A stretch of 64,000 bases of DNA from Gammaproteobacteria bacterium. Its GTDB lineage: Bacteria > Pseudomonadota > Gammaproteobacteria > Tethybacterales > G965206325. The stretch lies in the NCBI GenBank assembly GCA_965206325.1, contig OZ242208.1:678326-742325 (forward strand). Reading direction: 5' to 3'. Positions 7,521-22,998 of the stretch are shown piece by piece. A model generated the notes under the pieces. The model was not told the DNA's origin. It did no database searches and was given only the letters and a program-made list of their open reading frames with translations. Position numbers and translations under genes: made by a program. Within the stretch, counting starts at the first letter, position 1, and each line of letters starts with the position of its first letter.

Positions 7521-7585
7521 TTCTCCTCGCTTCCCGCCGATATTCTACTCCTTGCGGGGCGGAAATGCGAGTCAATCCGCGATTT

Positions 7586-8725
7586 TTAGCGCGCCGAATC
7601 GCCGTCGTTATTTTCCGGCGCAACGCCGAGAATTTTTTCAATCTTGGCGAGATGACGGCGGCTGGCGTCGTCGCAGCCCGCTTCCTCCGCAATGATATGC
7701 AGCCGACGGTAAAAATCCCTCCGTCCGGCAAGCGGGAGTCCGCGCAGATTTTTCAAGGCGGCTTGTTCTTTTTTTTCGGCGGCGGCGATGCCGTTTTCGC
7801 GGACGAATTTAATCGCCTTGTGCGCATCGCTTTCGCCGACCAGCCGGACTAAAGATTTCTGCTCCGATTTGGAAAGCACATTGTCGGATGCAAAAAGCAT
7901 AAGCAGGCACCATACTCGCGCCTGCGAAACGGCTTTTTCGGAATGTGCTCCAAAGCCGCCCTTTTCGGCGGCGGCGAAATCCCGGAGAATGCGATCGTCC
8001 AATTCCGCCGCCGACAGCGGGGCTTCTTTTTTTTCGCCCCGCCAGCGGTAAAACGGCTCGCTCATCGCAAACCAATGCAGCGCGCGGGCGCGCAGCGGTA
8101 GAATCGGATGCGTGCCGAAAACGGCGGATTCATCGCCCGCCGCCATCACTTCCTTCGCCTGCCGCAGATAAGATGCGGCATCAAGATTCAAATGACGGGA
8201 AGACAGACCGCTTGCAGTTTTTACAATCGCCGCAAAGGCGTCCTTTTCCAACGGCGCACAGACAAATCCCGCTCGGTCCGCGCTGATTTCCGCCGCCCGC
8301 TGCGAATGCAAAAGCGCCAGCGCGCCAAGCCCCCGCGCCGACCCGGCGGGCGGACGGCGGTGATGTCCGAAAAGATAATGGCCGATTTCGTGGCCGATGA
8401 CAAAGCGCAATTCATCCGCGCTCATCAAATCAACCAGACCGGAAGAAACGACGACGGCAAAGAGAACTTCGCCGCCCAGCGGAACGCACCACGCCTGCGG
8501 AATTGGGCCGCTTCTTGCATAGAATTCAATCGTGTGCGCGGCGCGCAGATTTTTCGCGACCGCCCGCATCGCCGAATGCAATTCGGGAAGCAGCGGCTCC
8601 GTTATGCGAACATCATGCGAAAGTAGGCGGATTCGCTCCCTGCGTCCGCGCGCGGAAAAAGATGCGCCGGAAGATTCAAATTCATCCGGCGAATCTTCGG
8701 CATAGCGCAGCGATTCAATTTCCAT
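7586..8725 (-). CDS. M48/HtpX-like Zn metallopeptidase domain protein with TerB-like C-terminal region
   Basis: HExxH motif (VIGHEIGHYLFGHH) and downstream HPILPLRARAL. The C-terminal helical region looks TerB-like. Last gene of the atypical Hsp70 operon. Confidence 0.55.
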   Translation of the reverse strand: MEIESLRYAEDSPDEFESSGASFSARGRRERIRLLSHDVRITEPLLPELHSAMRAVAKNLRAAHTIEFYARSGPIPQAWCVPLGGEVLFAVVVSSGLVDLMSADELRFVIGHEIGHYLFGHHRRPPAGSARGLGALALLHSQRAAEISADRAGFVCAPLEKDAFAAIVKTASGLSSRHLNLDAASYLRQAKEVMAAGDESAVFGTHPILPLRARALHWFAMSEPFYRWRGEKKEAPLSAAELDDRILRDFAAAEKGGFGAHSEKAVSQARVWCLLMLFASDNVLSKSEQKSLVRLVGESDAHKAIKFVRENGIAAAEKKEQAALKNLRGLPLAGRRDFYRRLHIIAEEAGCDDASRRHLAKIEKILGVAPENNDGDSAR

Positions 8726-9851
8726 CGCGGCAGTGTTTTTTGCGCGCTTCGGCGATTAAATTGCACATCAATTTCGCCCGCTCCCGCACTTTGGAATCGT
8801 GGTGAGTGACGCGGGAATTCCACTTTCCGTATTCGCGCAGAAGATGTTTTTTAATTTTTTCGGGGCTCATTCCCGGCGTAATCCCAATTTCGTCTTCCAA
8901 GTTAATTTCATCCTCGCTCGGCGGCGGCAAGTGACGGTCGGTTAGCGAGCGAAACCGATCTATGTCTATCCCCAATTCCGAGGCGATTATTTTGAGGATT
9001 CGCATTTCCGACTTGTGCGCTTCGTCGTCAATGCCCGCGACTTTCACGCACAACTCAAGAATGCCGAAGCAAGCGGACTCGCTTAAAACTTCGCGCGCGC
9101 GGCGGGCGAGTGCAGCGGCTTGCGAATCATCCGGCGGCGAAATTGCCGCATCCATAAAAATTTGCCAAAGTCGCTCGTAGGCGTCATCGCGTTCATCTTC
9201 ATTACTGGTCGCCGAAAATTTTCGAATCCAAGTGCGAATCAATCCGCGTTCATTCGGATGCACTTCGCCGTCGGCCCCGGCAATCGCCACCGCCAATTGA
9301 ACTTTCAGCCGCCCAAATTCCTGATGCTCCCCCAAATAACCCGGCTCTTTGCTTTCTACTAAAAAGGATTTGCATTTTGCGGAAGTGATGATCATTTCAC
9401 CGGTTGTCACTATCGCACGAAATTCGAGAGTCCGCCTGCCCGTGCGAGGAAAGCGCAAAGCGCGAATCGGAATCGGCGGAAGCCGTGCATCCTCCCTGAA
9501 AGAGACCGCGCGATGCAGGGAAATTTGCGGCGAAGTAGTGAACGAAAAAATCGGCGAATCCTCCGCCTGTAATTGCGCAATTTCACAAAGCACCGGCTCG
9601 CCGTCAGCGTCGTCAGTGATGTCCGAAAGGCGCAAATGTATGCGATGCGCACAGTGGTCATGAGGAAAAAACAGCGACCCCGCAATGCGGGGAACGAAGC
9701 AATCAAACTCCTTAAAGACCTCGCGCGAAACGCTGAGCGAAAACGGCTTAACCCCCGGCGCATCGCCGCCGTTTTGCCCGCCGCCGCCCGCCGACTTGTA
9801 AATCAGCCAGCTGACCCCCCAAACGATTAGAAAACCGATAAGCCATTCCAC
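8715..9851 (-). CDS. DjlA-like membrane co-chaperone candidate: N-terminal TM helix, two TerB-like repeats, degenerate C-terminal J-like domain
   Basis: N-terminal MEWLIGFLIVWGVSWLI is a TM segment. AIAGADGEVHPNERGLI and VKVAGIDDEAHKSEMRIL resemble DjlA/TerB repeats. The C-terminal GMSPEKIKKHLLREYGKWNSRVTHHD resembles a J domain with HPD replaced by HHD. Confidence 0.45.
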   Translation of the reverse strand: MEWLIGFLIVWGVSWLIYKSAGGGGQNGGDAPGVKPFSLSVSREVFKEFDCFVPRIAGSLFFPHDHCAHRIHLRLSDITDDADGEPVLCEIAQLQAEDSPIFSFTTSPQISLHRAVSFREDARLPPIPIRALRFPRTGRRTLEFRAIVTTGEMIITSAKCKSFLVESKEPGYLGEHQEFGRLKVQLAVAIAGADGEVHPNERGLIRTWIRKFSATSNEDERDDAYERLWQIFMDAAISPPDDSQAAALARRAREVLSESACFGILELCVKVAGIDDEAHKSEMRILKIIASELGIDIDRFRSLTDRHLPPPSEDEINLEDEIGITPGMSPEKIKKHLLREYGKWNSRVTHHDSKVRERAKLMCNLIAEARKKHCRDGN

Positions 9852-9866
9852 AGCGATTCTCCCGAT

Positions 9867-11420
9867 TTATTCAATCGTCAAGTCGTCCAAGTCGTGCTTG
9901 CGGGCGGCGTTGGCATCGGCATCGCGCTCGCCTTTTAAGTTTAGGCGGATTTCATGCGATTTGCCGCTTTCCACATCTTCAAAGCGGCAGTGCAGAACTT
10001 GGCTTTCGTCGCAGGTATAGGTGATTTTAACTGGCTGTCCCGCCGGACGATTAGGGGGCAATTCCAAATCTTTCTCGTAGATCGGCTTCATATATTCGGG
10101 GTCTTTCTCCTCCCCTTGAGTCACATTGCACTTGATGGTGCGCTGTCCATCCGCAATGGTGTAAAAGGTATCTTCGGCAGTCGTCGGCAGCGGGGTGTTT
10201 TTTTCAATAATGATGACATTTGTTCGCTTCATCGTTTCGCCGTCTACGGTAATCGTGCCATAACTGTCATTCACCACATCGGTCACTTTGCGCGATTGCA
10301 ATTCCCGACGCGCCGATGCCGACACCGATTCCGGCCGCTCGCGCACGGCGGCGAGTCCGGCGCTAATCGCCGCGCCCATTGCCACCGCTTCGTCGGGATT
10401 AATTCCCGTCACCGGCTTCTTGCCGAACATTCGCTCCACCGAGGCGACAACGGCGGGAATGCGCGTGCTGCCGCCGACCAGCAGAATTTCATCGATCGCG
10501 TCCGGTTTTAAATTCGCGTCGTCCATCGCTTTTTCCACCAGCAATTCAGTTCTGGCGATGTAAGTGGAAATTGCCTCTTCAAAGCGAGCGCGCGGAAAAT
10601 CCAAGCGGATTCTTTCGCCGCCTGCCCGGTTTTCGAGCAGTACCGGGTATTTATCCTTTTTGGACAGGGCGCGCTTAACTTTCTCCGATTCCTGCTCCCA
10701 TTTGTAGCGCGGATTTTCGCCTTCGTCATTGTCGGTCGCGCACAATTCCTCGCCGGTTTTGGTGCGATATTCCTCCTCAAATATCTTCAGCAATTCGCGG
10801 TCAAAATCGCAGCCGCCAAGATGGGCGTCGCCCTGCGAAGTGATGATTTTAATGTCGCGTCCGCGCGCTTCCAAAATCGTCACATCAAAGGTGCCGCCGC
10901 CCAAATCAAAAACCAGATAGCAGCCGTTTAACGCATGCTCGGTCGCGTAGGCGATAGCCGCCGCCGTCGGTTCGTTGACGATATGAATCACATCCAGCCC
11001 GGCGAGCCGTCCGGCTTCCATCGTCGCCTTGCGGTCCTCCTCCTTGAAATAAGCGGGCACCGAAATGGCGACAGGTCCAACGCCTCCCTTGTGTTCAACG
11101 CCGCCGCTGACCGTTTTCTTGAGAATCAGCGACGACAAATCGGCGGGCGAATACTCTTTGCCGCCAATGATTTGGCGATAGGCGAGATTGTGCATCTCCC
11201 GCTTGATTTCCTTTACTAGGCGGTCTTCGGGATATCTGCCCGCGGCGTCTTTCGCCTCTCCGCCGATGGAGACGCGTTCATCTCCTTCAAATAAAATTAG
11301 CGACGGCGTAATGCGTTCGCCGTCGGTGTTCGGCACGATTTCGGGCTTGCCGAGTTCGTTCAAAATCGCCGCCGCCGAATTGGTGGTGCCGAGGTCAATG
11401 CCGGTGATGTGCTTTGCCAT
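9867..11420 (-). CDS. Hsp70-family ATPase lacking the C-terminal lid (HscC-like, 517 aa)
   Basis: Hsp70 NBD signatures GIDLGTTNSAAA and DLGGGTFDVTIL. A beta-sandwich SBD is present but no helical lid. Confidence 0.85.
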   Translation of the reverse strand: MAKHITGIDLGTTNSAAAILNELGKPEIVPNTDGERITPSLILFEGDERVSIGGEAKDAAGRYPEDRLVKEIKREMHNLAYRQIIGGKEYSPADLSSLILKKTVSGGVEHKGGVGPVAISVPAYFKEEDRKATMEAGRLAGLDVIHIVNEPTAAAIAYATEHALNGCYLVFDLGGGTFDVTILEARGRDIKIITSQGDAHLGGCDFDRELLKIFEEEYRTKTGEELCATDNDEGENPRYKWEQESEKVKRALSKKDKYPVLLENRAGGERIRLDFPRARFEEAISTYIARTELLVEKAMDDANLKPDAIDEILLVGGSTRIPAVVASVERMFGKKPVTGINPDEAVAMGAAISAGLAAVRERPESVSASARRELQSRKVTDVVNDSYGTITVDGETMKRTNVIIIEKNTPLPTTAEDTFYTIADGQRTIKCNVTQGEEKDPEYMKPIYEKDLELPPNRPAGQPVKITYTCDESQVLHCRFEDVESGKSHEIRLNLKGERDADANAARKHDLDDLTIE

Positions 11421-12086
11421 TTATTTTTTCTCCGTTTTGCCGCTGTCGGTGGACTTCGCTTCTTCCGCCTGCGGCGGCGAAAAGTGCCAAACCTTTACGC
11501 GCGCCTTTCGCCAGACAATTCCGTCGTCGGCATCGTCGCGTTTGTGCAGGACTCCACTTCTGGTGACTTCGCAAATTTTTCCGTCATCTTCCTGCCGCTG
11601 CGTTTCTTTGGCGCTCGCGACTTCCGCGCGACGGCGCCAATCGTCAAAGGTGTCGCCGACTTTCGGACGAATCCGTTCGCTGTCAAATTTTTCCAGCAGA
11701 AATTCGGCGAGTTGCCGGACATCAGCATACCACGCTTTTTCTTCGCCGGGTTTCGCGCGATTATTTTCGCGCTCTTCAAGATAATCAAGGAAGTCGGCCA
11801 CCTCGCCGAGCACCGCCTTGTGCTTGGATAAATCGTATCCTTCGCGCCATCGCTGCAATTCTTTTTCCTTTCCGGCGACAAAATCGCGCACGCCGCGCAG
11901 CTGCTCATCAATTTCGCCGATGCCTTTGTGCAGGGTGGATTCCAGCGCGGCAATTTTTTCCGCCTGCGCCGCAAATTGCTCGCGGATTAGCGACTCCAAT
12001 CTGCGATAATCGCCGCCGGATTCGTCCGCTTGCGGGGCCGAATCAGCGTCCGGCGAATCGTTGGGCTGTTTTTCGTCGTCCGTCAT
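11421..12086 (-). CDS. GrpE-like nucleotide exchange factor candidate
   Basis: Acidic disordered N-terminus, a long coiled coil, and a C-terminal beta-rich segment (KICEVTRSGVLHKRDDADDGIVWRKARVKV) that parallels the GrpE C-terminus. Its stop abuts the Hsp70 start. Confidence 0.5.
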   Translation of the reverse strand: MTDDEKQPNDSPDADSAPQADESGGDYRRLESLIREQFAAQAEKIAALESTLHKGIGEIDEQLRGVRDFVAGKEKELQRWREGYDLSKHKAVLGEVADFLDYLEERENNRAKPGEEKAWYADVRQLAEFLLEKFDSERIRPKVGDTFDDWRRRAEVASAKETQRQEDDGKICEVTRSGVLHKRDDADDGIVWRKARVKVWHFSPPQAEEAKSTDSGKTEKK

Positions 12087-12217
12087 AGCGGTCGGAGTAT
12101 ACCTTTTCCCTCAAACACATCGGAGCGGAGCGCAATTTCGCTGCAGAATCGGGCGGAAAACGCCGATGGGCGATTTGTTGCTTATTTCATACATCGCGAA
12201 AAACCCCCGCCGAATTG

Positions 12218-12426: not shown

Positions 12427-13482
12427 TCAATGCGTTAATTCTCCCGCCGCATATTTTTCCGCCATTGCATCCAAAGGAAGAGGCGTTATTTTTTCCGCCT
12501 GACCCGCCGTGCCGAAGGCGTGGAATCGCTCTTCGCACACTTCGCGCATTTTGGCGATTGCCGGCTTGTTAAATTTGCGCGGATCAAATTCGCGCGGATT
12601 CTCAGCGGCGACTTTGCGATACTGCCCGATAATCGCCATTCGGCAGTCGGTGTCTATGTTGATTTTGCGCACGCCGTGCTTGATGCCGACGACAATTTCC
12701 TCCACCGGCACGCCCCAAGTTTGCGGCATTTCGCCGCCGTGCCGATTAATAATCTCTTGCAATTCCTGCGGCACCGATGAAGATCCATGCATCACCAAAT
12801 GCAGCGACGGCATTTTGCCGTTGATTTGCCTGACGACATCAATCGCCAGAATCGCCCCGTCCGGCTTTCGGCTGAATTTATACGCTCCGTGCGATGTGCC
12901 GATGGCGACCGCCAAAGCGTCCACCTGAGTCGCGCGGACAAATTCAGCGGCTTGGGCGGGATCGGTCAATAGCATTTCTCGGCTTAATTTTCCTTCTGCG
13001 CCGTGTCCGTCTTCGGCTTCGCCCTCGCCGGTTTCCAGCGAGCCGAGGCAGCCCAATTCGCCTTCCACCGAAACGCCGACCAGATGCGCCGTCTCGGCGA
13101 CCTGCCTTGTCACGCGCATATTGTATTCGTAGTCGGCGGGTGTTTTGGCGTCTTCCATAAGCGAGCCGTCCATCATTACGCTGGTGAATCCGTTGGCGAT
13201 TGCCGACAGGCAAGTGCGCGGATTATTGCCGTGATCCTGATGCATGCAGACGGGAATGCGCGGATGCATTTCCACCGCCGCCTGCATTAATCGTCGCAGA
13301 AAAACATCGCCGGCGTATTGGCGGGCGCCGCGGCTCGCCTGAATAATAACGGGCGCGGAAGCGGAATCGGCGGCTTGCATAATCGCCTGAATCTGCTCCA
13401 TATTATTGACATTAAACGCCGGCACGCCGTAGTTGTTTTCGGCGGCGTGATCCAGCAATTGCCGCAGCGAAATGAGGGCCAT
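12427..13482 (-). CDS. fba: fructose-bisphosphate aldolase class II
   Basis: [30 protein letters not shown] and the rest match class II FBA over full length. Start placed at MALIS. Confidence 0.9.
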
Positions 13483-13615
13483 TTTGTTTTCTCCTTTTGA
13501 ATAAATTCGCCGCCCCATTTTAGCAGAACGACGGTTATAACGAAAAAATAGTGAAGTAGCGGCGCATGTTAAAGTTTTCCGCGAGTATAATGCACCTGCC
13601 CAAGTAAAATGAAAT

Positions 13616-14182
13616 ATGGCGAGCGACGATTTTCTCTCAACAGAAGTGACTGAATTCCGCGCCCAGAACGCGAGAGATGCCCGCCGCTTTCTGGCGTCTT
13701 TTATCAGCGATGGCGCGATGGCGGGGGACTTGCTTGCCTTGGACTACGAAGAGGCAGCGGTACTTGTTCACGACTCGATGCGCCGGAAAATTGGTGGCTT
13801 GCCGATGGGTTGTTTTCTCTTGTCGACCCGCCTCGCGCCCTCAAGCGGTTCGGACGCGGCCGGACCGAATCCGAACGATGAAGACACTGCCCTGATTTTG
13901 TTGCGTGTTGTCGGCCGCGCGCAATTGCCCAATCGTGCCGACACGGATAAATACCGTCTAGACGCGGCCCTGCGCGCTATCGACAGCCCCGAAAACTGGG
14001 ACACTGAAAACAAAACCGACCAGTTCACGCTCAACCGACTCCGGCACGCAGGCGTTCGTTGCGCTGTGCTAGGCACTTTTCGCATGGAGTTGGAGCAACT
14101 GAAAGATAATTGGCGTCTGGGGTTTGGCGCCGACATTTCCAATTTCTACTCCGGCCAGGGGATGAAGGTTTACGGCGGATAG
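13616..14182 (+). pseudogene. 5' fragment of a HerA-like ATPase gene interrupted by an IS30-family element
   Basis: 188-aa ORF whose stop codon TAG is supplied by the first 3 nt of the IS inverted repeat. Removing the IS under two of three boundary models fuses it in frame to ORF 15183-16784. Confidence 0.55.
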
Positions 14183-15174
14183 TCATACTCAGTGCAACAC
14201 TGAATGGAGGTTGCGTTGGGCAAACGATTAACATTGGAAAAGCGACAGTTGATTGAGGGGCATCTGTCGGACGAGAGGTCGCTGCGGTGGATAGCGAGGG
14301 CTTTGGGCGTATCGGCATCGACCATCAGCCGCGAAGTGCGGCGCAATGGTGGGTGCGATGGTTATGATGCGGTGAGTGCGCAAGTGCGCTCGGCGGTAAT
14401 GCGGGTGGGGATTGGGCCGCCGTTGGTGTCGGGGATGGCGTGGTCGGCGGCGCAAGCGGAGTTGGCGAAGCGGCATAGTCCGGAGCAGATTGCGGGGCAT
14501 CGGTCGGATATTAGCGCGTCAACCATTCGCCGTCGGATAGCGGTGGAGCGGCTGCAGGGCGGAATGTCGCATCGGCATTTGCGGCGACGCGGCAAGCAGC
14601 GATTGTCGGCGGCGGCGCGCGCATTATGCCGCTGCAACAATATTCCGCATCGGATTCATTATGGACACCGCCCATTGGCGGCTGACGCGCGCAGCGAGAA
14701 TGGTCATTGGGAAATGGATACCATGTGGGATATCGGCACGCATGGTCGCGCTGGCGCCCTTGTCTTAACAGACCGCAAAAGCCGCCTGACTTGTCTGGCA
14801 GCGTTGCCGAAACGCACCGCCCGCGCCGTTGCGCAAGCCGCTGTCACTCTGCTGAAGCCTCACCCGTGCCACTCCATCACCGCCGACAACGGCGGCGAAT
14901 TCGCCAAGCATCATCTTATTACCCAAGCCCTCGGCGCGCCGGTGTTCTTTACCGATCCGGGCAGTCCCTGGCAGCGCGGCACCTGCGAAAACACCATCAG
15001 CCTAATCCGCGACCTCACCCCCAAACAGCGGCTCGGCTCAATGAACCCCGCCGCAATCCGCCGTATCGCCAATGCCATCAATCATCGACCAATGAAACTT
15101 CATCACTGGCAAACCCGATTCATGGCATCATCGCAACCATAACTTACCGTTGCACTGAGTATGACTATCCACAT
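14174..15174 (+). mobile_element. IS30-family insertion sequence, copy 1 (about 1.0 kb)
   Basis: Terminal inverted repeats GGCGGATAGTCATACTCAGTGCAAC and GTTGCACTGAGTATGACTATCCACAT (19-bp perfect core). It is 100% identical to the segment 18169-19169. Possible 2-bp AC target duplication. Confidence 0.85.
14204..15142 (+). CDS. IS30-family DDE transposase
   Basis: 312 aa with an N-terminal HTH and a DDE region (HWEMDTMW...ITADNGGEF...PGSPWQRGTCENTISLIRD) typical of IS30 transposases. Confidence 0.85.
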   Translation: MEVALGKRLTLEKRQLIEGHLSDERSLRWIARALGVSASTISREVRRNGGCDGYDAVSAQVRSAVMRVGIGPPLVSGMAWSAAQAELAKRHSPEQIAGHRSDISASTIRRRIAVERLQGGMSHRHLRRRGKQRLSAAARALCRCNNIPHRIHYGHRPLAADARSENGHWEMDTMWDIGTHGRAGALVLTDRKSRLTCLAALPKRTARAVAQAAVTLLKPHPCHSITADNGGEFAKHHLITQALGAPVFFTDPGSPWQRGTCENTISLIRDLTPKQRLGSMNPAAIRRIANAINHRPMKLHHWQTRFMASSQP

Positions 15175-15182
15175 ACAAACCG

Positions 15183-16784
15183 ATGGGGGGCGCTCTGTCG
15201 CGCATCGTCAACTTTACCAAACCAGCAGGCGATCCGCATCCGCTTTCCGGCAAGTCGGTGCCGGTCGGGCGTGTGCGCTACTGTTCCAGCGAAATCGCCG
15301 TCAACGCGAAACGCGACAATGTTCCCGTGACGATGGATCCCACCGACCTGTTGGCCCGGCGCACCGCGCTGTTTGGCATGAGCCGCAGCGGAAAATCCAA
15401 TACTATCAAGACCGTGTCGGCCGCCATTTTTATGTTACGCGATCACGACCCCAATTTGGGCCGCATTGGGCAGTTGATTTTTGACACTAATGGTGAGTAC
15501 TGCAACGACAATCCGCAGGATAACGGCTGCTTACGAAATGTCTGGCGCGAGACCCGAAAAACTGCTCAAGGCGATGTTGTCACTTACGGTTTGCATCCGC
15601 ACCCCAATGATCTAAATCGTCGACTGGTGAAAGTCAATTTCTTCGGAGAAACGCCGACGGCTTGGTCGGACCGGGAAAGCGTTGCGTCGGCGATGGACAT
15701 GTTGCTTGCCGGTAAGGCCATTATTGACGAGAGTATGCCGACGGAGGGTGCGCACTATGTCAAAAATTTCCTCAACACCGCGATGGATCTCCCGCCAGAA
15801 TGGGACAAGGGGACTCAAATACGCTATCAGCGATGCGTCATCGTCTATCGCGCTCTACTGTTCGGAGCGGGGTTTGCACCGCCACAAAATATGGGACAGG
15901 CAAACATTGCCGGGTTGTTTGGAAAAAATATCCGGGAATCCCTTGATGCTGCTGGCTATGAAGCGACGGCTGCAACATTCGAGAAACATCAGGTTGAGTG
16001 GACGTCTCTGGTTGCATCGCTGAAAGATCTGCGGAAATTTTTGTCGTCCGACGCAGGAATGAATTTCGACAAGCTCTGCTCCGAAAGCTCGCGTGGTAAG
16101 AGCTGGAGCGACGATAGGCTTGTGGGGTTGCTTTCGCTTCTCGAGCGCCCACAGGGGATCGCACGGTTGCGCGGGCTGAAAACGCAGCACAGCCCAGATG
16201 TGTCGGTTGACTACGCGGTTAAGATTGTCGACGATCTTGTCGCAGGACGGCTTGTCATCATGGACCAGTCGACCGGTGCTCCGGATTTGATTCAACGAGC
16301 CTCGGAGCGCATTATGTGGGAATTATTTAACCGCCAAAAGGAAACGTTTATCTCGCCGGCCCGAGATAAAAACGATGAGTTGGTTCTAGACGAAAACAAC
16401 AACATCAAACCGCCACCCGATGTTATCGTTTACGCAGAGGAGGCGCACAATCTCTTGCCCGCAAAGAATGCTGATCTTTCTTCGGTATGGGCGCGCATCG
16501 TCAAAGAGGGATCCAAGTTCCACATCGGCATGGTGTATTCCACTCAAGAGCCGAGCTCCATCCTGTCCAACATCCTCAAGAACACCGACAATTGGTTTGT
16601 GGCTCATCTCAACAATCAGGATGAGATGCGCGAGCTCAGGAAGTATTACGACTTCGAGATGTTCGCCGGACAGATTTTGAAAGTGCCTGATACCGGATTC
16701 GTGCGGATGCGCTGCCTGTCTAATCCTTATATCGTCCCAATTCAGGTCGACCGATTCGCCATGAAACTCGAGGAGGGGAAATAG
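15183..16784 (+). CDS. HerA/FtsK-superfamily ATPase (DUF87-like), 3' portion of the IS-split gene
   Basis: Walker A GMSRSGKSNT and Walker B VIVYAEEAHNLLP (hhhhEEAH type typical of HerA/DUF87). Lower GC and different codon usage than flanking core genes. Confidence 0.6.
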   Translation: MGGALSRIVNFTKPAGDPHPLSGKSVPVGRVRYCSSEIAVNAKRDNVPVTMDPTDLLARRTALFGMSRSGKSNTIKTVSAAIFMLRDHDPNLGRIGQLIFDTNGEYCNDNPQDNGCLRNVWRETRKTAQGDVVTYGLHPHPNDLNRRLVKVNFFGETPTAWSDRESVASAMDMLLAGKAIIDESMPTEGAHYVKNFLNTAMDLPPEWDKGTQIRYQRCVIVYRALLFGAGFAPPQNMGQANIAGLFGKNIRESLDAAGYEATAATFEKHQVEWTSLVASLKDLRKFLSSDAGMNFDKLCSESSRGKSWSDDRLVGLLSLLERPQGIARLRGLKTQHSPDVSVDYAVKIVDDLVAGRLVIMDQSTGAPDLIQRASERIMWELFNRQKETFISPARDKNDELVLDENNNIKPPPDVIVYAEEAHNLLPAKNADLSSVWARIVKEGSKFHIGMVYSTQEPSSILSNILKNTDNWFVAHLNNQDEMRELRKYYDFEMFAGQILKVPDTGFVRMRCLSNPYIVPIQVDRFAMKLEEGK

Positions 16785-16788
16785 TCCG

Positions 16789-18117
16789 ATGCCTTACGAA
16801 AGGGAGGTCGCCAGCGGCGACAGTTTGATTTGGCTGAAAAACAGCGAGGTTTTGCGGGAGTTCAAAGGAATCATCCAGCGTCGAGAAGAAATCCCTCAAT
16901 TTCCCCCGCCGCTGCTGACGGATATTAAGCGCATCGGTTGGTGGCCGCGGCGAGTCATCGCAGTGGACGGCTCCAACATCGTCCAGCGCGTCAACAACGG
17001 CTTTCCGGGGGCCGAGGCGGGGTTGATGATGGTTTCAGTCGTCTCCATCAAATTAGAGATGCTGCGCGCTATCGCACCCGGGACGATTCCCAGCCCGGCG
17101 ATTTTTCACAATATGGAAAACGCCTGCACCTTGGAAGCCGCCGTGCCGGGCATTGGCGTGGTGCGCCGCGATGTCAAAAACGACTCGCCGAAAGAATTCT
17201 TTCGGCACTGCGTCTACGAAGTGCTGTCCGGCACTGTTGCCGGAAACCATGAAAGTTTGCTAGAAACGCTACGCGCTATCGATGAAAAACGGAAAATTGA
17301 AATTCCATGTCCCATCGATGGGTGCAGCGAACACTTTGTCCGCCAGCAAGGGAAATACTGCTGCAACTGCCAAAGACATGAAACAATGTTTGAGACGGAT
17401 GCCCTGCGATTGCATCAATACTTTCAAGACATCGGCGGTAGCGGCGAAGCGCACGGACGACTACGGGATGTATTGGAGCTTTTAGTGCTACTGAATATTC
17501 TGCGGTTCTTCGCGGAAAAGGAGCCGGCGTATCTCGCCGACTGTGCCTTTGTATTGGACGGTCCCCTCGCTGTGTTCGGGGCTCCGGCCTCCATTTTGCG
17601 GTCGGTCCGCAACGAGTTTGTGCGCTTGAATGAAAAGGCCCGGTCATTTAACAAGCAGGATATTGTCGTATTCGGCATTGAAAAATCCGGTCGCTTTTTC
17701 GAGCATTGGGAGGAAATTGACTGGGACGATGAAAAAGGGCCGCGTCGTCGGTTTCCTACCGGCACTGTCCTTGCACTGGATAATGATTACATTTCCCGAA
17801 ATATCGTAGCATCCAGCGCCAAAAGTAAACCCTACGGCGAGGACACTTATTACGGCAGAAAGGTTTTTTACAAAACGCAGAAAGAAGAACATGTCGTTCT
17901 TAACACCGCTATGTTGAATACGACCGCACAGGATTTCAACCGGAATGACATGAAATGTTATCCACGCTTGGGTGACATTCTGGATGTGATGGATCAACTT
18001 GCGACCCATCTTTACCGCGACGGTTTCATGCCGTTGACGCGCGCACACGCGCACGCCGCCATTCCGCTGAAACGCGGAGCTGACATCATCAAGAGTTTGT
18101 TGGAGGACAGCGCGTGA
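16789..18117 (+). CDS. NurA-like nuclease candidate partner of the HerA-like ATPase
   Basis: Begins 5 nt after the ATPase stop. N-terminal VIAVDGSNI matches the NurA (I/V)DGS catalytic motif. Internal Cys cluster CPIDGC...CCNC is zinc-ribbon-like. Confidence 0.4.
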   Translation: MPYEREVASGDSLIWLKNSEVLREFKGIIQRREEIPQFPPPLLTDIKRIGWWPRRVIAVDGSNIVQRVNNGFPGAEAGLMMVSVVSIKLEMLRAIAPGTIPSPAIFHNMENACTLEAAVPGIGVVRRDVKNDSPKEFFRHCVYEVLSGTVAGNHESLLETLRAIDEKRKIEIPCPIDGCSEHFVRQQGKYCCNCQRHETMFETDALRLHQYFQDIGGSGEAHGRLRDVLELLVLLNILRFFAEKEPAYLADCAFVLDGPLAVFGAPASILRSVRNEFVRLNEKARSFNKQDIVVFGIEKSGRFFEHWEEIDWDDEKGPRRRFPTGTVLALDNDYISRNIVASSAKSKPYGEDTYYGRKVFYKTQKEEHVVLNTAMLNTTAQDFNRNDMKCYPRLGDILDVMDQLATHLYRDGFMPLTRAHAHAAIPLKRGADIIKSLLEDSA

Positions 18118-18168
18118 CCAAACTCGCATGGCCATACAGCACAGCCGAGGGGCGTTGGGCGGGGTTTG

Positions 18169-19169
18169 GGCGGATAGTCATACTCAGTGCAACACTGAAT
18201 GGAGGTTGCGTTGGGCAAACGATTAACATTGGAAAAGCGACAGTTGATTGAGGGGCATCTGTCGGACGAGAGGTCGCTGCGGTGGATAGCGAGGGCTTTG
18301 GGCGTATCGGCATCGACCATCAGCCGCGAAGTGCGGCGCAATGGTGGGTGCGATGGTTATGATGCGGTGAGTGCGCAAGTGCGCTCGGCGGTAATGCGGG
18401 TGGGGATTGGGCCGCCGTTGGTGTCGGGGATGGCGTGGTCGGCGGCGCAAGCGGAGTTGGCGAAGCGGCATAGTCCGGAGCAGATTGCGGGGCATCGGTC
18501 GGATATTAGCGCGTCAACCATTCGCCGTCGGATAGCGGTGGAGCGGCTGCAGGGCGGAATGTCGCATCGGCATTTGCGGCGACGCGGCAAGCAGCGATTG
18601 TCGGCGGCGGCGCGCGCATTATGCCGCTGCAACAATATTCCGCATCGGATTCATTATGGACACCGCCCATTGGCGGCTGACGCGCGCAGCGAGAATGGTC
18701 ATTGGGAAATGGATACCATGTGGGATATCGGCACGCATGGTCGCGCTGGCGCCCTTGTCTTAACAGACCGCAAAAGCCGCCTGACTTGTCTGGCAGCGTT
18801 GCCGAAACGCACCGCCCGCGCCGTTGCGCAAGCCGCTGTCACTCTGCTGAAGCCTCACCCGTGCCACTCCATCACCGCCGACAACGGCGGCGAATTCGCC
18901 AAGCATCATCTTATTACCCAAGCCCTCGGCGCGCCGGTGTTCTTTACCGATCCGGGCAGTCCCTGGCAGCGCGGCACCTGCGAAAACACCATCAGCCTAA
19001 TCCGCGACCTCACCCCCAAACAGCGGCTCGGCTCAATGAACCCCGCCGCAATCCGCCGTATCGCCAATGCCATCAATCATCGACCAATGAAACTTCATCA
19101 CTGGCAAACCCGATTCATGGCATCATCGCAACCATAACTTACCGTTGCACTGAGTATGACTATCCACAT
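18169..19169 (+). mobile_element. IS30-family insertion sequence, copy 2 (identical to copy 1)
   Basis: Identical to 14174-15174 at a constant offset of 3995 nt, including both inverted repeats. Confidence 0.85.
18199..19137 (+). CDS. IS30-family DDE transposase (second copy)
   Basis: Translation is identical to 14204-15142. Confidence 0.85.
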   Translation: MEVALGKRLTLEKRQLIEGHLSDERSLRWIARALGVSASTISREVRRNGGCDGYDAVSAQVRSAVMRVGIGPPLVSGMAWSAAQAELAKRHSPEQIAGHRSDISASTIRRRIAVERLQGGMSHRHLRRRGKQRLSAAARALCRCNNIPHRIHYGHRPLAADARSENGHWEMDTMWDIGTHGRAGALVLTDRKSRLTCLAALPKRTARAVAQAAVTLLKPHPCHSITADNGGEFAKHHLITQALGAPVFFTDPGSPWQRGTCENTISLIRDLTPKQRLGSMNPAAIRRIANAINHRPMKLHHWQTRFMASSQP

Positions 19170-19184
19170 GGTCCCTATTACGCG

Positions 19185-20240
19185 ATGTTCCCTGTAGGGT
19201 TTGCCAAGCAGATTGTCGAAACCATGTGTCCCCTTGACGGCGGTGTTTTGGATCCGTTCTGCGGACGAGGCACCGCACCGTTTGTGGCGCAGGCAACCGG
19301 AAGATTCGCACTTGGCTTAGATATCAACCCGGTAGCGTGGGTTTTCGCCATAGTGAAAACTCATCCCGAACCGAATGCCGAACGAGTCATCCACCGGTTG
19401 GACGATGTCCGCCGAGCGTCAAGGGTGCGCGACGCTAAGCACTGCAATGAATTCCAGCGGTGGGCGTGGTCATCTGATGTCCTCCGCTTTCTGAAAACCG
19501 CGCGGCGCGTCTTGGATTGGGAGAACGATAAGGTTGACCGAACTCTGATGGGCTTCATTCTGACGCATGTCCACGCCAAGATTGGTGATGGCATCAGCAA
19601 CCAAATGCACAAATCGCGTGCGCTGGGGCCGGATTATGCAGTCCGCTGGTGGAAAGAACGCAATATGCCTCCCCCAGACATAAACCCAATCATCTTTTTG
19701 CGTAACCGCATTTTGTGGCGCTACTGTCATGGCGTGGTACGCAATCGCGCGCCGGAAATAATTTTAGAGCGCGCTGAAAAAGTGCTTCCTCGCCGCCGCA
19801 CCGCGCGATTTGATCTGTTGCTGACTTCACCGCCGTATTTCAATGTCACCGACTATCGACAGGATAGCTGGATTCGCCTGTGGATGCTGAAAAAAGGGCC
19901 AGCCTTACCGAATTGGAAGTCAGACCTTAAGTTTGCGCGGCGCAGTGCTTACCAACCCATGCTGGAAAATGTCTTTTCCAGTGCGGTTCACCTAATGAAA
20001 CCGGGTTGTGCAATTTGGGTGCGAACCAGTGCGCGCAAATTCACGAGGGAAGCGACCATTGCAGCTATTCATGCATCCTGGCCTCGGAGAAAACTTTATT
20101 TGCGCCTAGATTTTCCGAAAATCCCCACACAAACGGCACAATTCGGGCACACTTCGTCCAAGCCGACCGAAATGGATCTGCTCATCGCGCGCCAAGGTAT
20201 GCCGCCCCCGAGGGGGTTTACGCCGTTTCGTTCGGATTGA
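19185..20240 (+). CDS. DNA methyltransferase, N4-cytosine/N6-adenine class (motif I N-terminal, SPPY motif IV)
   Basis: Motif I VLDPFCGRGTAPF near the N-terminus and motif IV LLLTSPPYFNVTDY. The frame is open upstream into the IS, so the first Met (19185) after the IS end was taken as start. The native 5' end may have been altered. Confidence 0.6.
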   Translation: MFPVGFAKQIVETMCPLDGGVLDPFCGRGTAPFVAQATGRFALGLDINPVAWVFAIVKTHPEPNAERVIHRLDDVRRASRVRDAKHCNEFQRWAWSSDVLRFLKTARRVLDWENDKVDRTLMGFILTHVHAKIGDGISNQMHKSRALGPDYAVRWWKERNMPPPDINPIIFLRNRILWRYCHGVVRNRAPEIILERAEKVLPRRRTARFDLLLTSPPYFNVTDYRQDSWIRLWMLKKGPALPNWKSDLKFARRSAYQPMLENVFSSAVHLMKPGCAIWVRTSARKFTREATIAAIHASWPRRKLYLRLDFPKIPTQTAQFGHTSSKPTEMDLLIARQGMPPPRGFTPFRSD

Positions 20241-20515: not shown

Positions 20516-21217
20516 TCACTGCCGCGCGAATTGAAGAAGCCAGCGCGCCGCAGCCGCACTGTCATCCCTCCGCGAAAGAGATGAGATTGCCTGCCGATAA
20601 AGCGATTCGCCCAAAGATTCTCTGCGGCGATCCAGAATCGTCCGCAAAAAATCGCGGGTGAATTCGGGATGCCCCTGCAGGCAGAGAGTGCGCCGTCCGA
20701 CCGAAAACATTGCGTTGGGGCAGAATTCGCTGGCGGCGAGGCGAATCGCGCCGGGCGGCAGTTTGGTAACTTGATCTTGATGACTCGCCAGCAGCCGCAA
20801 ATTTTTGCGGGGCGGACGCATCCATTCGGGCGCGCGCAGAATTTTCCATTGCTGAATTCCCGCGCCCCAGCCGCCTTGCCATTTTTCGGCGCGGCCGCCC
20901 AGCGATTCGGCGATGAGTTGATGGCCGAAGCAAATCCCCAAAAGCGGAATGCGATGGCGGTGAATTTGCGCGGTGAATTTTTTAAGGGGCGGAATCCACG
21001 CTAATTTGTCGTAGACCCCGGCGCGGCTGCCGGTGATTAAGTAGCAGTCGCACTCGTTAATTTGTTTGGGCAGTTGTTTGCGGGTGGCGTTGTAGGCGGC
21101 GAATTCCGCATCGGGGTCGGCGCGCCGCAGCAGCGACATAAACATTTGCGCGTAGTCGCCGTGGACGGCGCGCTGGGGCGCGTTAATTTCGTCGCACAGC
21201 AGAATGCCGATTCGCAT
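20516..21217 (-). CDS. class I glutamine amidotransferase-like protein
   Basis: GATase1 nucleophile elbow ICFGHQLIAESLGG and downstream His. Confidence 0.65.
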   Translation of the reverse strand: MRIGILLCDEINAPQRAVHGDYAQMFMSLLRRADPDAEFAAYNATRKQLPKQINECDCYLITGSRAGVYDKLAWIPPLKKFTAQIHRHRIPLLGICFGHQLIAESLGGRAEKWQGGWGAGIQQWKILRAPEWMRPPRKNLRLLASHQDQVTKLPPGAIRLAASEFCPNAMFSVGRRTLCLQGHPEFTRDFLRTILDRRRESLGESLYRQAISSLSRRDDSAAAARWLLQFARQ

Positions 21218-21261: not shown

Positions 21262-22998
21262 ATGACCGTCGCCGCCCGATTCAAAGCCGAATTGACCGCC
21301 GCCTTTCGCGACGCGCAAAAATCCGCGCTGGCGATGGCGGAGGATTCGCCGCCGATTGAGCGTCCGCGCCAGCGCAGCCACGGCGATTACGCCTGCCATT
21401 CGGCGATGCGCCTCGCCGCCCGACTCAAATTGCCGCCGCACGAAATCGCTCAAAAAATCATCGGCGCATTTTCGCCGCCGAAATTTGTGGAGGAAATTAC
21501 GGTCGCCGGGGCGGGATTCATCAATGTAAAAATTAAGCCGTCGGCGAAAGCGGAAATCGTCGCTGATGCTTTGCGTCTCGGCGATAAATTCGGCGCGGGC
21601 GAAAGAAAGCCGTCGCGCATTCATTTGGAATTCGTCTCGGCGAATCCCACCGGACCTTTGCATATCGGACACGGCAGAGGCGCCGCCTACGGGGCTTCGC
21701 TGGCGGAAATTCTGCGCTTCGCTGGCGACGATGTGCATTGCGAATATTATGTCAATGACTGCGGAAGACAAACCGACATTCTCGCCGCTTCGCTTTGGCT
21801 GCGCTATCTTGCGCGATGGAATTCATCCTTGGGAGAATTGCCCAAGGGCGCGTATCAGGGCGATTATTTGGAGAAGGTCGCCGCCGCTCTCGTTGATTCC
21901 AACGGCGAAGAATTTGTCCGCGAAGTTTCGCCGAATGAAATTCCGCGCATGGAAAACGCCGATGAATCCGCCGATGCAATGGTCGCGCTCGCCCGCAAAA
22001 AATTAGAGGGGGGGGGGGAGGGGGGGTATGCCGCCGTTCAGCAATTCGCGCTGGAAAAAATGCTGGAAGATATTCGCGGCGACTTGAAGGAATTCGGCGT
22101 TAAATTTCACCGCTGGTTTTGCGAAAGCGAATTGGCGGATAAAATTCAACCGGCCTTGGATTCTATTTCGCCTTATCTTTATGAAAAAGAAGGCGCGCTA
22201 TGGTTTCGCGCGAGCGAATTCGGCGACGAAAAAGACCGCGTCGTCCGCCGCCAAAACGGGGCGTTTACTTACATCGCCGCCGACATCGCCTATTTGCGCG
22301 ATAAATTCAACCGCCATTTTGATTCGCTGATTTATGTTTTGGGGGCGGATCATCACGGCTATATTCCCCGCCTGCATGCGGCGGCGACGGCGATGGGATA
22401 TAATGCGGACAGAATAGAATCCCCCATCATTCAATTCGCCGCTCTTAAAAAAGGGGGGGAGGGGGGGGGCAGAATCCAAATGTCCACGCGCGCCGGCGAA
22501 TTTGTTTCGCTGCGCGAATTGCGGGAGGAAATCGGCAACGATGCGGCGCGCTATTTTTTCATCGCCCGCCGCGCCGACCAGCATTTGGAATTTGATTTGG
22601 AATTAGCCAAATCCAAAAGCGCCGACAATCCGGTTTATTACATTCAATACGCGCATGCGCGAATTTGCAGCGTTCTTTCGCAATGGGGGGGGGGGACGGA
22701 ATCGCTTGCGGACATTGATGAAAATGCGCTTAACCTTGGAGAGGAGCATTCTCTCATTGACGAATTGCTGCGCTTTGAAGAAGCGGTTGAAAATGCGGGG
22801 GCGACTCGCGCGCCGCATATTCTGGCGCATTATCTTTATGAATTGGCGGTGCGCTTTCATGGATATTACGCCGCCGCTCCGATTCTTAAATCCGACGAGC
22901 CGATTAAATCCGCGCGGCTTGCTTTGGCATTGGCGGTTAAAATCGCCATTAAAAACGGGCTTGCTTTGCTCGGCGTTAATGCGCCGGAAAAAATGTAA
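21262..22998 (+). CDS. argS: arginine--tRNA ligase
   Basis: Class I aaRS HIGH-like SANPTGPLHIGHGRGA and a KMSK-like region QMSTRAG over a full-length ArgS architecture. It carries three in-frame poly-G insertions. Confidence 0.9.
   Translation: MTVAARFKAELTAAFRDAQKSALAMAEDSPPIERPRQRSHGDYACHSAMRLAARLKLPPHEIAQKIIGAFSPPKFVEEITVAGAGFINVKIKPSAKAEIVADALRLGDKFGAGERKPSRIHLEFVSANPTGPLHIGHGRGAAYGASLAEILRFAGDDVHCEYYVNDCGRQTDILAASLWLRYLARWNSSLGELPKGAYQGDYLEKVAAALVDSNGEEFVREVSPNEIPRMENADESADAMVALARKKLEGGGEGGYAAVQQFALEKMLEDIRGDLKEFGVKFHRWFCESELADKIQPALDSISPYLYEKEGALWFRASEFGDEKDRVVRRQNGAFTYIAADIAYLRDKFNRHFDSLIYVLGADHHGYIPRLHAAATAMGYNADRIESPIIQFAALKKGGEGGGRIQMSTRAGEFVSLRELREEIGNDAARYFFIARRADQHLEFDLELAKSKSADNPVYYIQYAHARICSVLSQWGGGTESLADIDENALNLGEEHSLIDELLRFEEAVENAGATRAPHILAHYLYELAVRFHGYYAAAPILKSDEPIKSARLALALAVKIAIKNGLALLGVNAPEKM

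Follow-up and report, generated by a model that had tools for sequence, protein, structure and literature searches.

An IS30-interrupted HerA–NurA–methyltransferase cassette as a putative methylation-based variant of the TdpAB restriction machinery

Which function can be attributed to three adjacent genes for an ATPase, a nuclease and a DNA methyltransferase, and what is left of it when insertion sequences (ISs) have landed among them? The question is raised by a stretch of 64,000 nucleotides from a Gammaproteobacteria bacterium of the Tethybacterales (assembly GCA_965206325.1, contig OZ242208.1, positions 678,326 to 742,325), hereafter called the window, in which three genes of the plus strand, interrupted by two ISs, are placed between the aldolase gene fba and a GATase-domain gene. 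An initial annotation, made from the letters of the window, had seen in this layout a restriction-like or anti-phage module. This is the best-supported reading, because the closest solved relatives of the ATPase and the nuclease are TdpA and TdpB, respectively, and because distant members of the family swap in other methyltransferase families or an AbiTii-domain protein. The most fitting description of the cassette is that of a new variant, based on methylation, of the recently described HerA/NurA (TdpAB) restriction machinery; the comparative and structural evidence for this is strong, and it is from this evidence that we infer the function. As the initial annotation had also suspected, the trio is not a named system: it is missing from PADLOC v2, where the nuclease matches no model, and RefSeq gives its proteins generic names only. 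Furthermore, our literature searches found no description of HerA, NurA and a methyltransferase together as a defence or restriction-modification (R-M) system.

The gene trio, its distribution and its proteins

The genes of the cassette are listed below as they stand in the window. Their reconstruction relies on a metagenomic contig of a near-identical strain (L004), which carries the same locus.

13616–14173, plus strand: 5' fragment of the ATPase gene (HerA/FtsK-type, TdpA-like), codons 1–186, ending in the invariant GQGMKVY (list of open reading frames (ORFs); joined with 15177–16784, identical to the L004 gene)
14174–15173, plus strand: IS30-family IS copy 1, 1000 bp, with a transposase ORF at 14204–15142 (312 aa) (identity run, junctions, empty site in L004)
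15177–16784, plus strand: 3' part of the ATPase gene, codons 187–721, with Walker A, the variable helical insertion, Walker B and TQEP
16789–18117, plus strand: NurA-fold (TdpB-like) nuclease gene, intact, 442 aa, with an inserted four-cysteine zinc ribbon
18114–18168, plus strand: 5' stub of the methyltransferase gene, GTG start, codons 1–18 plus 1 nt (reconstruction; uninterrupted 374-aa gene at the same place in L004)
18169–19168, plus strand: IS30-family IS copy 2, with a transposase ORF at 18199–19137 (identity run, junctions, empty site in L004)
19171–20240, plus strand: 3' remainder of the methyltransferase gene, from the second base of codon 19 to the stop, with motif I DPFCGRGT and motif IV TSPPY

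The three genes are tightly packed. In the window, 4 nt separate the stop of the ATPase gene from the start of the nuclease gene, and the GTG start of the methylase gene at 18114 overlaps the nuclease stop (GTGA). Equally tight junctions are found in the sister locus and in related loci, and promoter and terminator scans gave nothing above chance.

The nuclease family is real yet uncommon, with ~490 close homologues in a set of 5.8 billion proteins. Of 1.84 billion representatives of clusters made at 50% identity, 737 belong to the family, 227 of them at E≤1e-30. When genomes that each represent one species were scanned, 63 loci were obtained from more than 10 phyla, the taxa being Nitrospirales, Latescibacterota, Thermodesulfobacteriota, Gamma- and Alphaproteobacteria, Chloroflexota, Acidobacteriota, Cloacimonadota, Actinomycetota, Bacteroidota and others. 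Cultured carriers are Bradyrhizobium japonicum, Vreelandella massiliensis, Roseibium aggregatum, Ruegeria, Dactylosporangium and Moraxella lacunata. By TBLASTN, the ATPase gene lies directly upstream of the nuclease gene wherever the contig allows, the methylase gene lies directly downstream in 62 of the 63 loci, and the order ATPase, NurA-like nuclease, methyltransferase is kept in 62 of 63, as the initial annotation had expected of uninterrupted relatives. Moreover, across 55 loci, the degrees of identity of the three proteins to those of the window vary together (Spearman 0.91 for ATPase–nuclease, 0.72 for ATPase–methyltransferase and 0.62 for nuclease–methyltransferase), and no fourth conserved gene was found in the 63 loci. 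These data support the view that the trio is a real co-inherited functional unit.

Since the distribution is patchy and the contexts are variable, the cassette appears to be horizontally mobile; it is a self-contained mobile module that lands in varied places, like many R-M systems. The genes directly next to the cassette (112 in 61 loci) are a mixed set, for the most part with housekeeping functions (TGT, tRNA synthetase, ribonucleotide reductase), with no recurrent integrase or conjugation gene among them. Defence-related neighbours are few and scattered: at most three extra methyltransferases, two TmtA-like proteins, one SLFN-type helicase and one PIN protein. The defence-island setting envisaged at the outset is clear at one locus (L001, with ApeA, PIN/VapB, a type ISP R-M system and AAA_21/DUF4276) and is otherwise occasional only. 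Horizontal acquisition had initially been argued from a lower GC content and a different codon usage of the island. The idea of mobility stands, through the distribution and the contexts just described, whereas the compositional argument falls: the GC content of the island without its IS copies (54.0% versus 55.5% for the window) is at the 20th percentile of same-size windows, and its GC content at third codon positions (0.59–0.64) lies inside the spread of the ORFs of the window (0.55–0.78, mean 0.62). The IS copies are GC-richer (~0.61).

Several further observations concern the distribution and the make-up of the loci. A typically phage-borne cassette was considered and rejected, as a scan of viral contigs gave two distant matches only, at contig edges beside an integrase. 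Two contigs of one sample (L002 and L003), which differ in context and whose nuclease is 75% identical to that of the window, carry an extra PF01555 methylase gene directly upstream of the ATPase gene (7341–7718 and 6837–7712, respectively); the L003 copy is complete (291 aa), whereas the one in L002 is cut short at 125 aa. In another locus (L015, 7992–10484), the nuclease and the methylase occupy one uninterrupted 831-codon frame, a possible fusion; the ATPase gene of this locus is frameshifted, so that the fusion could be a sequencing or assembly error.

The ATPase (721 aa) matches Pfam DUF87/HerA (E=1.2e-7), the HerA models of PADLOC (E down to 3e-16) and, by similarity, a mad8-like model of PADLOC (E=2.4e-10). 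Its Walker A (GMSRSGKSNT), its Walker B (VYAEEAHN) and its TQEP sensor motif are invariant in 35 homologues, and a glutamine in the sensor-1 position has been described as diagnostic of the HerA/FtsK clade (PMC10853773). Its scores on the HerA equivalogs of NCBIfam are only 32–46 bits, for cut-offs of 800–970, which places the ATPase outside all named HerA subfamilies. Its best match among PDB sequences is TdpA (8wet_A, E=1.4e-18). With the family profile, TdpA comes first at 1.1e-24 over two segments, ten orders of magnitude ahead of the next HerA at 3.9e-14. The most variable part of the protein is a helical insertion of ~200 residues between Walker A and Walker B (about residues 346–545), where the mean identity to the window ATPase is 0.40 versus 0.67–0.68 in the core segments.

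The nuclease (442 aa) was recognized in another way. Its match to Pfam NurA (PF09376) is sub-threshold (E=0.0028, 17.6 bits for a cut-off of 21), it has no match in PADLOC or NCBIfam, and its family profile retrieved from the PDB sequences a weak zinc-ribbon match to RPA70 and nothing else. The assignment rests on fold comparison, according to which the protein has a NurA (RNase H-like) fold, with TdpB as closest solved relative. The VIAVDGS motif is present; no variation is seen at D60 (AIDGS), D257 (FVLDGPL), E298/K299 and H420/H422, and hardly any at E76. Of these, D60, E76, D257 and H420/H422 are candidate catalytic residues. Four cysteines (C174, C179, C192 and C194; CPx3C…CxC), invariant in 30 homologues, form an inserted zinc ribbon that is still discernible in a haloarchaeal homologue. 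The most conserved segment of the nuclease, its C-terminal RAHAHAAIPLKRG tail, has a pLDDT below 50 in the model and may serve for docking, becoming ordered in the complex only. This tail (…MPLTRAHAHAAIPLKRGADII…, residues 411–442, window 18030–18117) is among the best-conserved parts of the family.

The methyltransferase (374 aa) matches Pfam PF01555 (E=7e-13) and the Type II methyltransferase models of PADLOC. The window gene, although disrupted by an IS, encodes both the motif I that binds S-adenosylmethionine (SAM; DPFCGRGT) and the catalytic motif IV (TSPPY), as found in methyltransferases of R-M systems. Among 58 and 27 family members, TSPPY is invariant and DPFxGRGT is invariant or nearly so, and the stretch of ~185 aa between the two motifs is well conserved. 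PDB matches of the profile are solved N4-cytosine/N6-adenine DNA methyltransferases (TTHA0409, CcrM, N4C-MTase, DpnA, M.MboIIA, M.PvuII and M.RsrI), entry 2zie being the best match and 8s9n another. The N-terminus of the profile aligns to the C-termini of the solved enzymes and, for 2zie, the reverse alignment is also found; motif I thus comes before motif IV, in a circular permutation of the usual beta-class order. The methylase is thus predicted to be a permuted PF01555-type N4-cytosine/N6-adenine DNA methyltransferase. The SPPY form of motif IV is more typical of N4-cytosine enzymes.

For all three proteins, the identities proposed in the initial annotation were borne out: the HerA/FtsK-type ATPase by the Pfam and PADLOC matches, the NurA-like motif and cysteine cluster by their conservation and by the fold (Pfam NurA alone being sub-threshold), and the DNA methyltransferase with FCGRGT and SPPY by PF01555.

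Kinship with Tdp and with other ATP-dependent systems

The tdpABC genes encode a third phosphorothioate-based R-M system, for whose modification tdpC suffices, and Tdp has been described in extremophilic bacteria (PMC12914056). Like Tdp, represented in the PDB by 8wet, 8wfd and 8y1k, the cassette combines a HerA-like hexameric ATPase (TdpA), an adjacent NurA-like nuclease (TdpB) and one modification gene. Judging from the gene letters, the order of TdpABC is presumably ATPase, nuclease, modifier, as in the cassette. However, the modifier of the cassette is a SAM-dependent PF01555-type methyltransferase and not the phosphorothioation enzyme TdpC. Furthermore, the ATPase is longer (721 aa, with its helical insertion of ~200 aa, versus 586 aa for TdpA), as is the nuclease (442 aa, with its four-cysteine zinc ribbon, versus 358 aa for TdpB, which may also have a ribbon), identities in structural alignments are 15–19%, and the cassette family occurs in mesophilic and marine metagenome-assembled genomes (MAGs), in soil bacteria and in a haloarchaeon. 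Since the third gene is a methyltransferase gene and the 63 loci share no other conserved gene, the cassette is not a member of TdpABC and is a relative of its restriction half only.

The most economical reading, to which we give about an even chance, is that the cassette is a counterpart of Tdp based on methylation, namely an ATP-dependent R-M system whose restrictase is HerA–NurA. Its restriction enzyme would most likely be a TdpAB-like motor–nuclease complex and not a PD-(D/E)XK or superfamily 2 (SF2) enzyme. In such a system, the methylase would mark host DNA; a ring of ATPase subunits, bearing the docked nuclease, would thread and degrade DNA, as suggested by the homology to TdpAB and to archaeal HerA–NurA; and modification of self-DNA would stop or prevent translocation and cleavage, by analogy with Tdp. 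In the Tdp work, phosphorothioate on self DNA reportedly inhibits translocation and cleavage by TdpAB.

Distant relatives of the cassette keep the motor–nuclease pair and vary its partner. A plasmid of the haloarchaeon Halorarius has the order DUF87, NurA-like, PF01555 methyltransferase. In Deferribacter desulfuricans (plasmid pDF308, L072, 1958–5756), the PF01555 methyltransferase gene is upstream of the DUF87 and NurA genes, and the DUF87 ATPase gene is split by an IS200/IS605 element (TnpB and TnpA), which parallels the IS30 insertion of the window. A D12-class adenine methyltransferase is encoded upstream in two loci (L074 and L075) and downstream in a third one (L077). An HsdM-type methyltransferase gene also occurs upstream in L076, on the opposite strand and after a 1.4-kb gap, and may belong to a separate system. 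Finally, plasmid pANSO36C of Nostoc cf. commune (L070, 3625–8433) carries genes for a helix-turn-helix (HTH) regulator, DUF87 and NurA followed by an AbiTii-domain protein instead of the methylase, and looks like a modification-independent variant of the pair. Since the repeated recruitment of unrelated DNA methylases would otherwise be hard to explain, methylation is probably what the motor–nuclease pair responds to.

The same three domain families are found in the integrative and conjugative element (ICE) ICEth1 of Thermus thermophilus, where a co-transcribed operon encodes the type IIG enzyme TthHB27I/Tth111II, the NurA-like TTC1878, TdtA (TTC1879) and the PF01555 methylase TTC1880 (PMC5365140). 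The likeness is one of domain content, i.e. NurA-like, HerA/FtsK-like and PF01555 methylase in one operon. The order differs, being NurA, ATPase, methyltransferase (377 aa, about 64 kDa and 410 aa) in ICEth1 versus ATPase, NurA, methyltransferase (721, 442 and 374 aa) in the cassette. ICEth1 also has the extra type IIG enzyme and is an ICE with integrase and att sites, whereas the cassette of the window is flanked by fba and the GATase gene, with no integrase. A search with TdpA fragments (from the PDB alignment), used as a bridge to the Thermus TdtA, gave short truncated remnants only, in uninformative contexts. The Thermus operon might be a relative of the same restriction logic. Somewhat more tentatively than for the cassette itself, and at slightly less than even chances, HerA–NurA–methyltransferase cassettes could constitute a distinct unnamed ATP-dependent R-M class with a ring translocase and an RNase H-fold nuclease in place of the helicase/PD-(D/E)XK restriction subunit and with a freely exchangeable modification gene, present in more than 10 bacterial phyla and in haloarchaea and unifying TdpABC and possibly the ICEth1 operon; the modification exchanged in this class would be that of permuted PF01555 or D12-class methylases and, in Tdp, phosphorothioation.

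The cassette also differs from the other systems with which it shares a component. In contrast to what is expected of HerA–NurA pairs devoted to end resection, PF09376 is below its gathering threshold here, no Metallophos or SMC gene adjoins the cassette in the window or in sampled loci, and its distribution is sporadic. Unlike the archaeal and Deinococcus HerA–NurA, it has an obligatory methylase partner and a mobile distribution. With the HerA anti-phage systems (SIR2–HerA/Nezha and DUF4297–HerA) and DndH/DptH, it shares a HerA-clade ATPase as motor or scaffold of a defence complex (PADLOC HerA models, 3e-16 to 1e-12; PDB relatives 8j4u, 8wiv, 9c1m and 7es4). However, the effector of the cassette has a NurA fold and is not SIR2, DUF4297/Cap4 or PD-(D/E)XK, and the ATPase scores 45.6 bits on NCBIfam HerA_antiphage, for a cut-off of 800. 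The cassette moreover has a dedicated methylase, and neither these anti-phage systems nor DndH/DptH are known to carry a modification gene. The resemblance to MADS (methylation-associated defence system) is limited to the mad8-like ATPase: instead of a mad1–mad8 cluster, there is a three-gene cassette with no other mad gene. As in Types I, III and ISP, a methyltransferase gene, an NTP-dependent translocase and a nuclease are found in one operon that is mobile and patchily distributed. In contrast to Types I and III, the translocase is a HerA/FtsK ring ATPase and not an SF2 helicase, and the nuclease is of the NurA/RNase H kind and not PD-(D/E)XK; in contrast to Type I, no HsdS-like specificity subunit is conserved in the cassette. 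A reappraisal of Dnd by the Aravind laboratory treats ‘HerA/FtsK capture’ and not NurA (PMC10853773).

Insertions, the sister allele and the decay of the cassette

The two IS copies, both 1000 bp long, are 100% identical, point in the same direction and belong, as first proposed, to the IS30 family. Their transposase scores 196.7 bits on the NCBIfam model transpos_IS30 (NF033563; cut-off 80, 6e-58) and has the Pfam domains HTH_38 and rve, i.e. the DDE transposase with an N-terminal HTH of this family; it is at most 40% identical to plasmid-borne ISApl1-like transposases. Both copies end in 22-bp perfect terminal inverted repeats (14177–14198 and 15149–15170 for copy 1). Copy 1 is bordered by a 3-bp target duplication, TAC (14171–14173 and 15174–15176), and copy 2 by a 2-bp one, TG (18167–18168 and 19169–19170), or alternatively by a 3-bp TGG around a 999-bp element. 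Target duplications of 2–3 bp are typical of IS30. No third copy is found in the 64-kb window.

The locus of L004 has intact genes for proteins of 721, 442 and 374 aa and the same fba and GATase/argS flanks. BLASTN aligns the window with it in three collinear blocks (98.6–100% nucleotide identity), with ends that have 3 nt in common at both IS sites. The empty sites, …GGTTTAC/AAACCG… and …GGGGTTTG/GTCCC…, verify the duplications and indicate clean insertions with 3-bp and 2-bp target duplications. Excision of copy 1 and of one TAC joins 13616–14173 to 15177–16784 in frame and restores an ATPase of 721 aa that is 100% identical to the product of the uninterrupted L004 gene, in agreement with the initial annotation, which had this gene split by an IS. 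Excision of copy 2 and of one TG joins 18114–18168 to 19171–20240 and restores the 374-aa methylase. Both reconstructions are proven by the IS-free L004 allele, and the 442-aa nuclease is 100% identical in the two strains.

The second insertion had been placed between the nuclease and the methylase genes, and the methylase had been taken as left intact. Both points have to be corrected. Copy 1 splits the ATPase gene after codon 186, inside the invariant GQGMKVY/KP, and copy 2 splits the methylase gene after codon 19 (19/20), inside the invariant RWAG.G/PYYAMFP, at a place where the L004 gene is uninterrupted. The 512-aa ORF listed at 18702–20240 is a chimera of an alternative frame of the IS and of the methylase remainder, and the first in-frame ATG past copy 2 would give a methylase devoid of the invariant R14, W15 and G19–A23 (GPYYA). 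Since the ISs split both the ATPase and the methylase genes, as seen against the IS-free allele, the cassette is dead in the source genome and the nuclease gene alone is intact. The ATPase insertion probably came first or simultaneously with that of the methylase, because loss of a protective methylase would be tolerable only with restriction switched off.

Insertional inactivation, proposed from the outset as relief from a costly or toxic module, thus holds for the ATPase and also for the methylase, which was not spared. Both IS copies of the window are inside the 4.6-kb cassette, for which uniform insertion over ~62 kb gives, by simple arithmetic, a probability of ~0.005. Selection for inactivation cannot be claimed from this number, which concerns one genome and is also compatible with local hopping. 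Apart from the fate of the methylase and the composition, the initial annotation was largely confirmed.

Two other features of the interrupted locus were observed. In the manner of a composite transposon, the direct IS copies enclose 2,995 bp with the nuclease gene, the methylase stub and the 3' portion of the ATPase gene, and this unit could move the nuclease gene or be lost through recombination. In addition, the cassette is closer to its counterpart in L004 (7831–12450) than the flanks are: 0/558, 3/2992 and 4/1070 bp differ (99.6–100% identity), versus ~98.6% identity for the flanks. Recent acquisition or exchange of the cassette could account for this.

Decay of the cassette is not restricted to the window. 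In an automated census of 61 loci, followed by curation by hand, the ATPase or the nuclease gene is frameshifted, truncated or interrupted in ~14 loci and the methylase gene is broken or undetected in ~3. Two of the latter (L017 and L064) clearly also have a damaged ATPase or nuclease gene; in the other one (L067), no methylase was detected and the status of the ATPase is uncertain. The window, with a disrupted methylase gene and a disrupted restriction gene, parallels this rule. In an Arenicellales MAG (L061, 6785–8001), the NurA-like gene is interrupted by ~1.2 kb with an IS110-family transposase gene on the opposite strand. The asymmetry weakly suggests a toxin-like restriction half and an antidote-like methylase. 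One near-identical contig (L073; P0174, ena ERZ25069326 ctg78689, 9x coverage) was considered as a third allele of the cassette of the window, with a truncated ATPase, and rejected: fba, PDH-E1 and argS are also split in it, which indicates low-coverage assembly errors. This case is a warning for pseudogene counts in such sets of MAGs.

Outside the cassette, the following genes flank it or belong to a minus-strand cluster of four genes (7562–12134) that is strain-variable.

7586–8725, minus strand: M48 peptidase, strain-variable cluster
8715–9851, minus strand: TerB-domain protein, strain-variable cluster
9867–11420, minus strand: Hsp70-like protein, truncated, 517 aa, strain-variable cluster
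11421–12086, minus strand: 221-aa protein with no Pfam match, strain-variable cluster
12427–13518, minus strand: class II fructose-bisphosphate aldolase gene (fba), left flank (Pfam F_bP_aldolase on the L004 orthologue; ORF list)
20516–21217, minus strand: GATase-domain gene, right flank (Pfam annotation of L004; ORF list)
21262–22998: argS, beyond the GATase gene (Pfam annotation of L004; ORF list)

In L004, the slot of the cluster, between PDH-E1 and fba, is occupied by a gene for a 442-aa Fic protein. With this strain-variable cluster on its left and the cassette on its right, the fba neighbourhood is a hotspot that is variable on both sides.

Competing explanations and significance

Several points weigh against the cassette being a methylation-based R-M system. 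The literature searches found no experiments on the HerA–NurA–methyltransferase family, the mechanistic analogy with Tdp draws on titles of PDB entries, and a ring translocase would have to be able to read base methylation. The nuclease is without any PADLOC match, and the immediate neighbours, being mostly housekeeping genes, give no strong defence-island signal. Counted per kilobase, restriction genes are not significantly more often broken than the methylase gene, and some of the frameshifts in MAGs are assembly errors, as in L073. Furthermore, the sole studied operon with the same domain trio, that of ICEth1, is required for donating DNA (‘transjugation’), and when its methylase is deleted the effects are reportedly minor, unlike what would be predicted for a classical R-M addiction module (PMC5365140, PMC7767461).

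The methylase could also act otherwise than through a mark left on host DNA. As in Types I and III, it would then be a subunit of the complex and its sole sequence reader: an unmethylated site would load or activate HerA–NurA, and hemimethylated host DNA would just be methylated. We consider this unlikely, while noting that the cassette has no separate specificity subunit and that neither ATPase nor nuclease has, zinc ribbon aside, a domain that would obviously read DNA; that the overlap between nuclease stop and methylase start suggests translational coupling; that methylase identity co-varies with that of both partners; that one MAG (L015) has nuclease and methylase in a single open frame; and that the conserved region of ~185 aa between motifs I and IV could be a shared interface or a target-recognition domain. 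However, unrelated methylase families found at either end of the operon in distant relatives are easier to reconcile with a diffusible mark, TdpAB, the closest solved relative, is a complex without modification enzyme (title of 8wet), and the fusion locus, with its frameshifted ATPase gene, may be an assembly error.

A device for DNA donation or export like the TdtA system of ICEth1, with the methylase as an accessory, would be a rather improbable identity for the cassette and remains a live rival, given that the ICEth1 operon comprises the same three domain families and that transjugation depends on TdtA and the NurA-like protein whereas methylase loss is of minor effect (PMC5365140, PMC7767461). 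Gene order and sizes differ between ICEth1 and the cassette, and no membrane segment or secretion context is evident. No integrase, att repeat, type IIG enzyme or conjugation gene is found beside the cassette in the window, and none of them is recurrent among the 112 neighbours in 61 loci. Moreover, the ATPase and the nuclease both have the TdpAB restriction complex as their best match. Finally, an ordinary HerA–NurA pair for end resection at double-strand breaks, with the methylase as an unrelated neighbour or a regulatory orphan, is suggested by the labels of homologues in RefSeq/NCBI (‘DNA double-strand break repair nuclease NurA’, ‘DUF87 domain-containing protein’) and is already disfavoured as highly improbable, since the methylase adjoins the pair in 62 of 63 loci and co-varies with it, the distribution is sparse and patchy in variable contexts, no mre11 or rad50 lies beside the cassette in the window and sampled loci, the genes are dispensable, as sister strains differ by IS disruption, and the pair is often pseudogenised.

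If the cassette is indeed a methylation-based R-M system, it would represent an R-M architecture besides Types I–IV, BREX, DISARM and Dnd/Ssp/Tdp, in which processive degradation by HerA–NurA is held by base methylation. This would give a function to proteins that in many genomes are labelled ‘DUF87’ or ‘double-strand break repair nuclease NurA’, provide a model to be added to PADLOC, which lacks it in v2.0.0, and invite a second look at the Thermus DNA-donation operon. It would also offer a simple three-gene system to study how a ring translocase senses DNA modification. The cassette of the window is an IS-inactivated relic, and the intact sister allele could be used for experiments. Two near-identical strains that differ by IS knock-outs of the motor and of the methylase can be viewed as a natural experiment, from which the strain-specific loss of one methylation motif is predicted.

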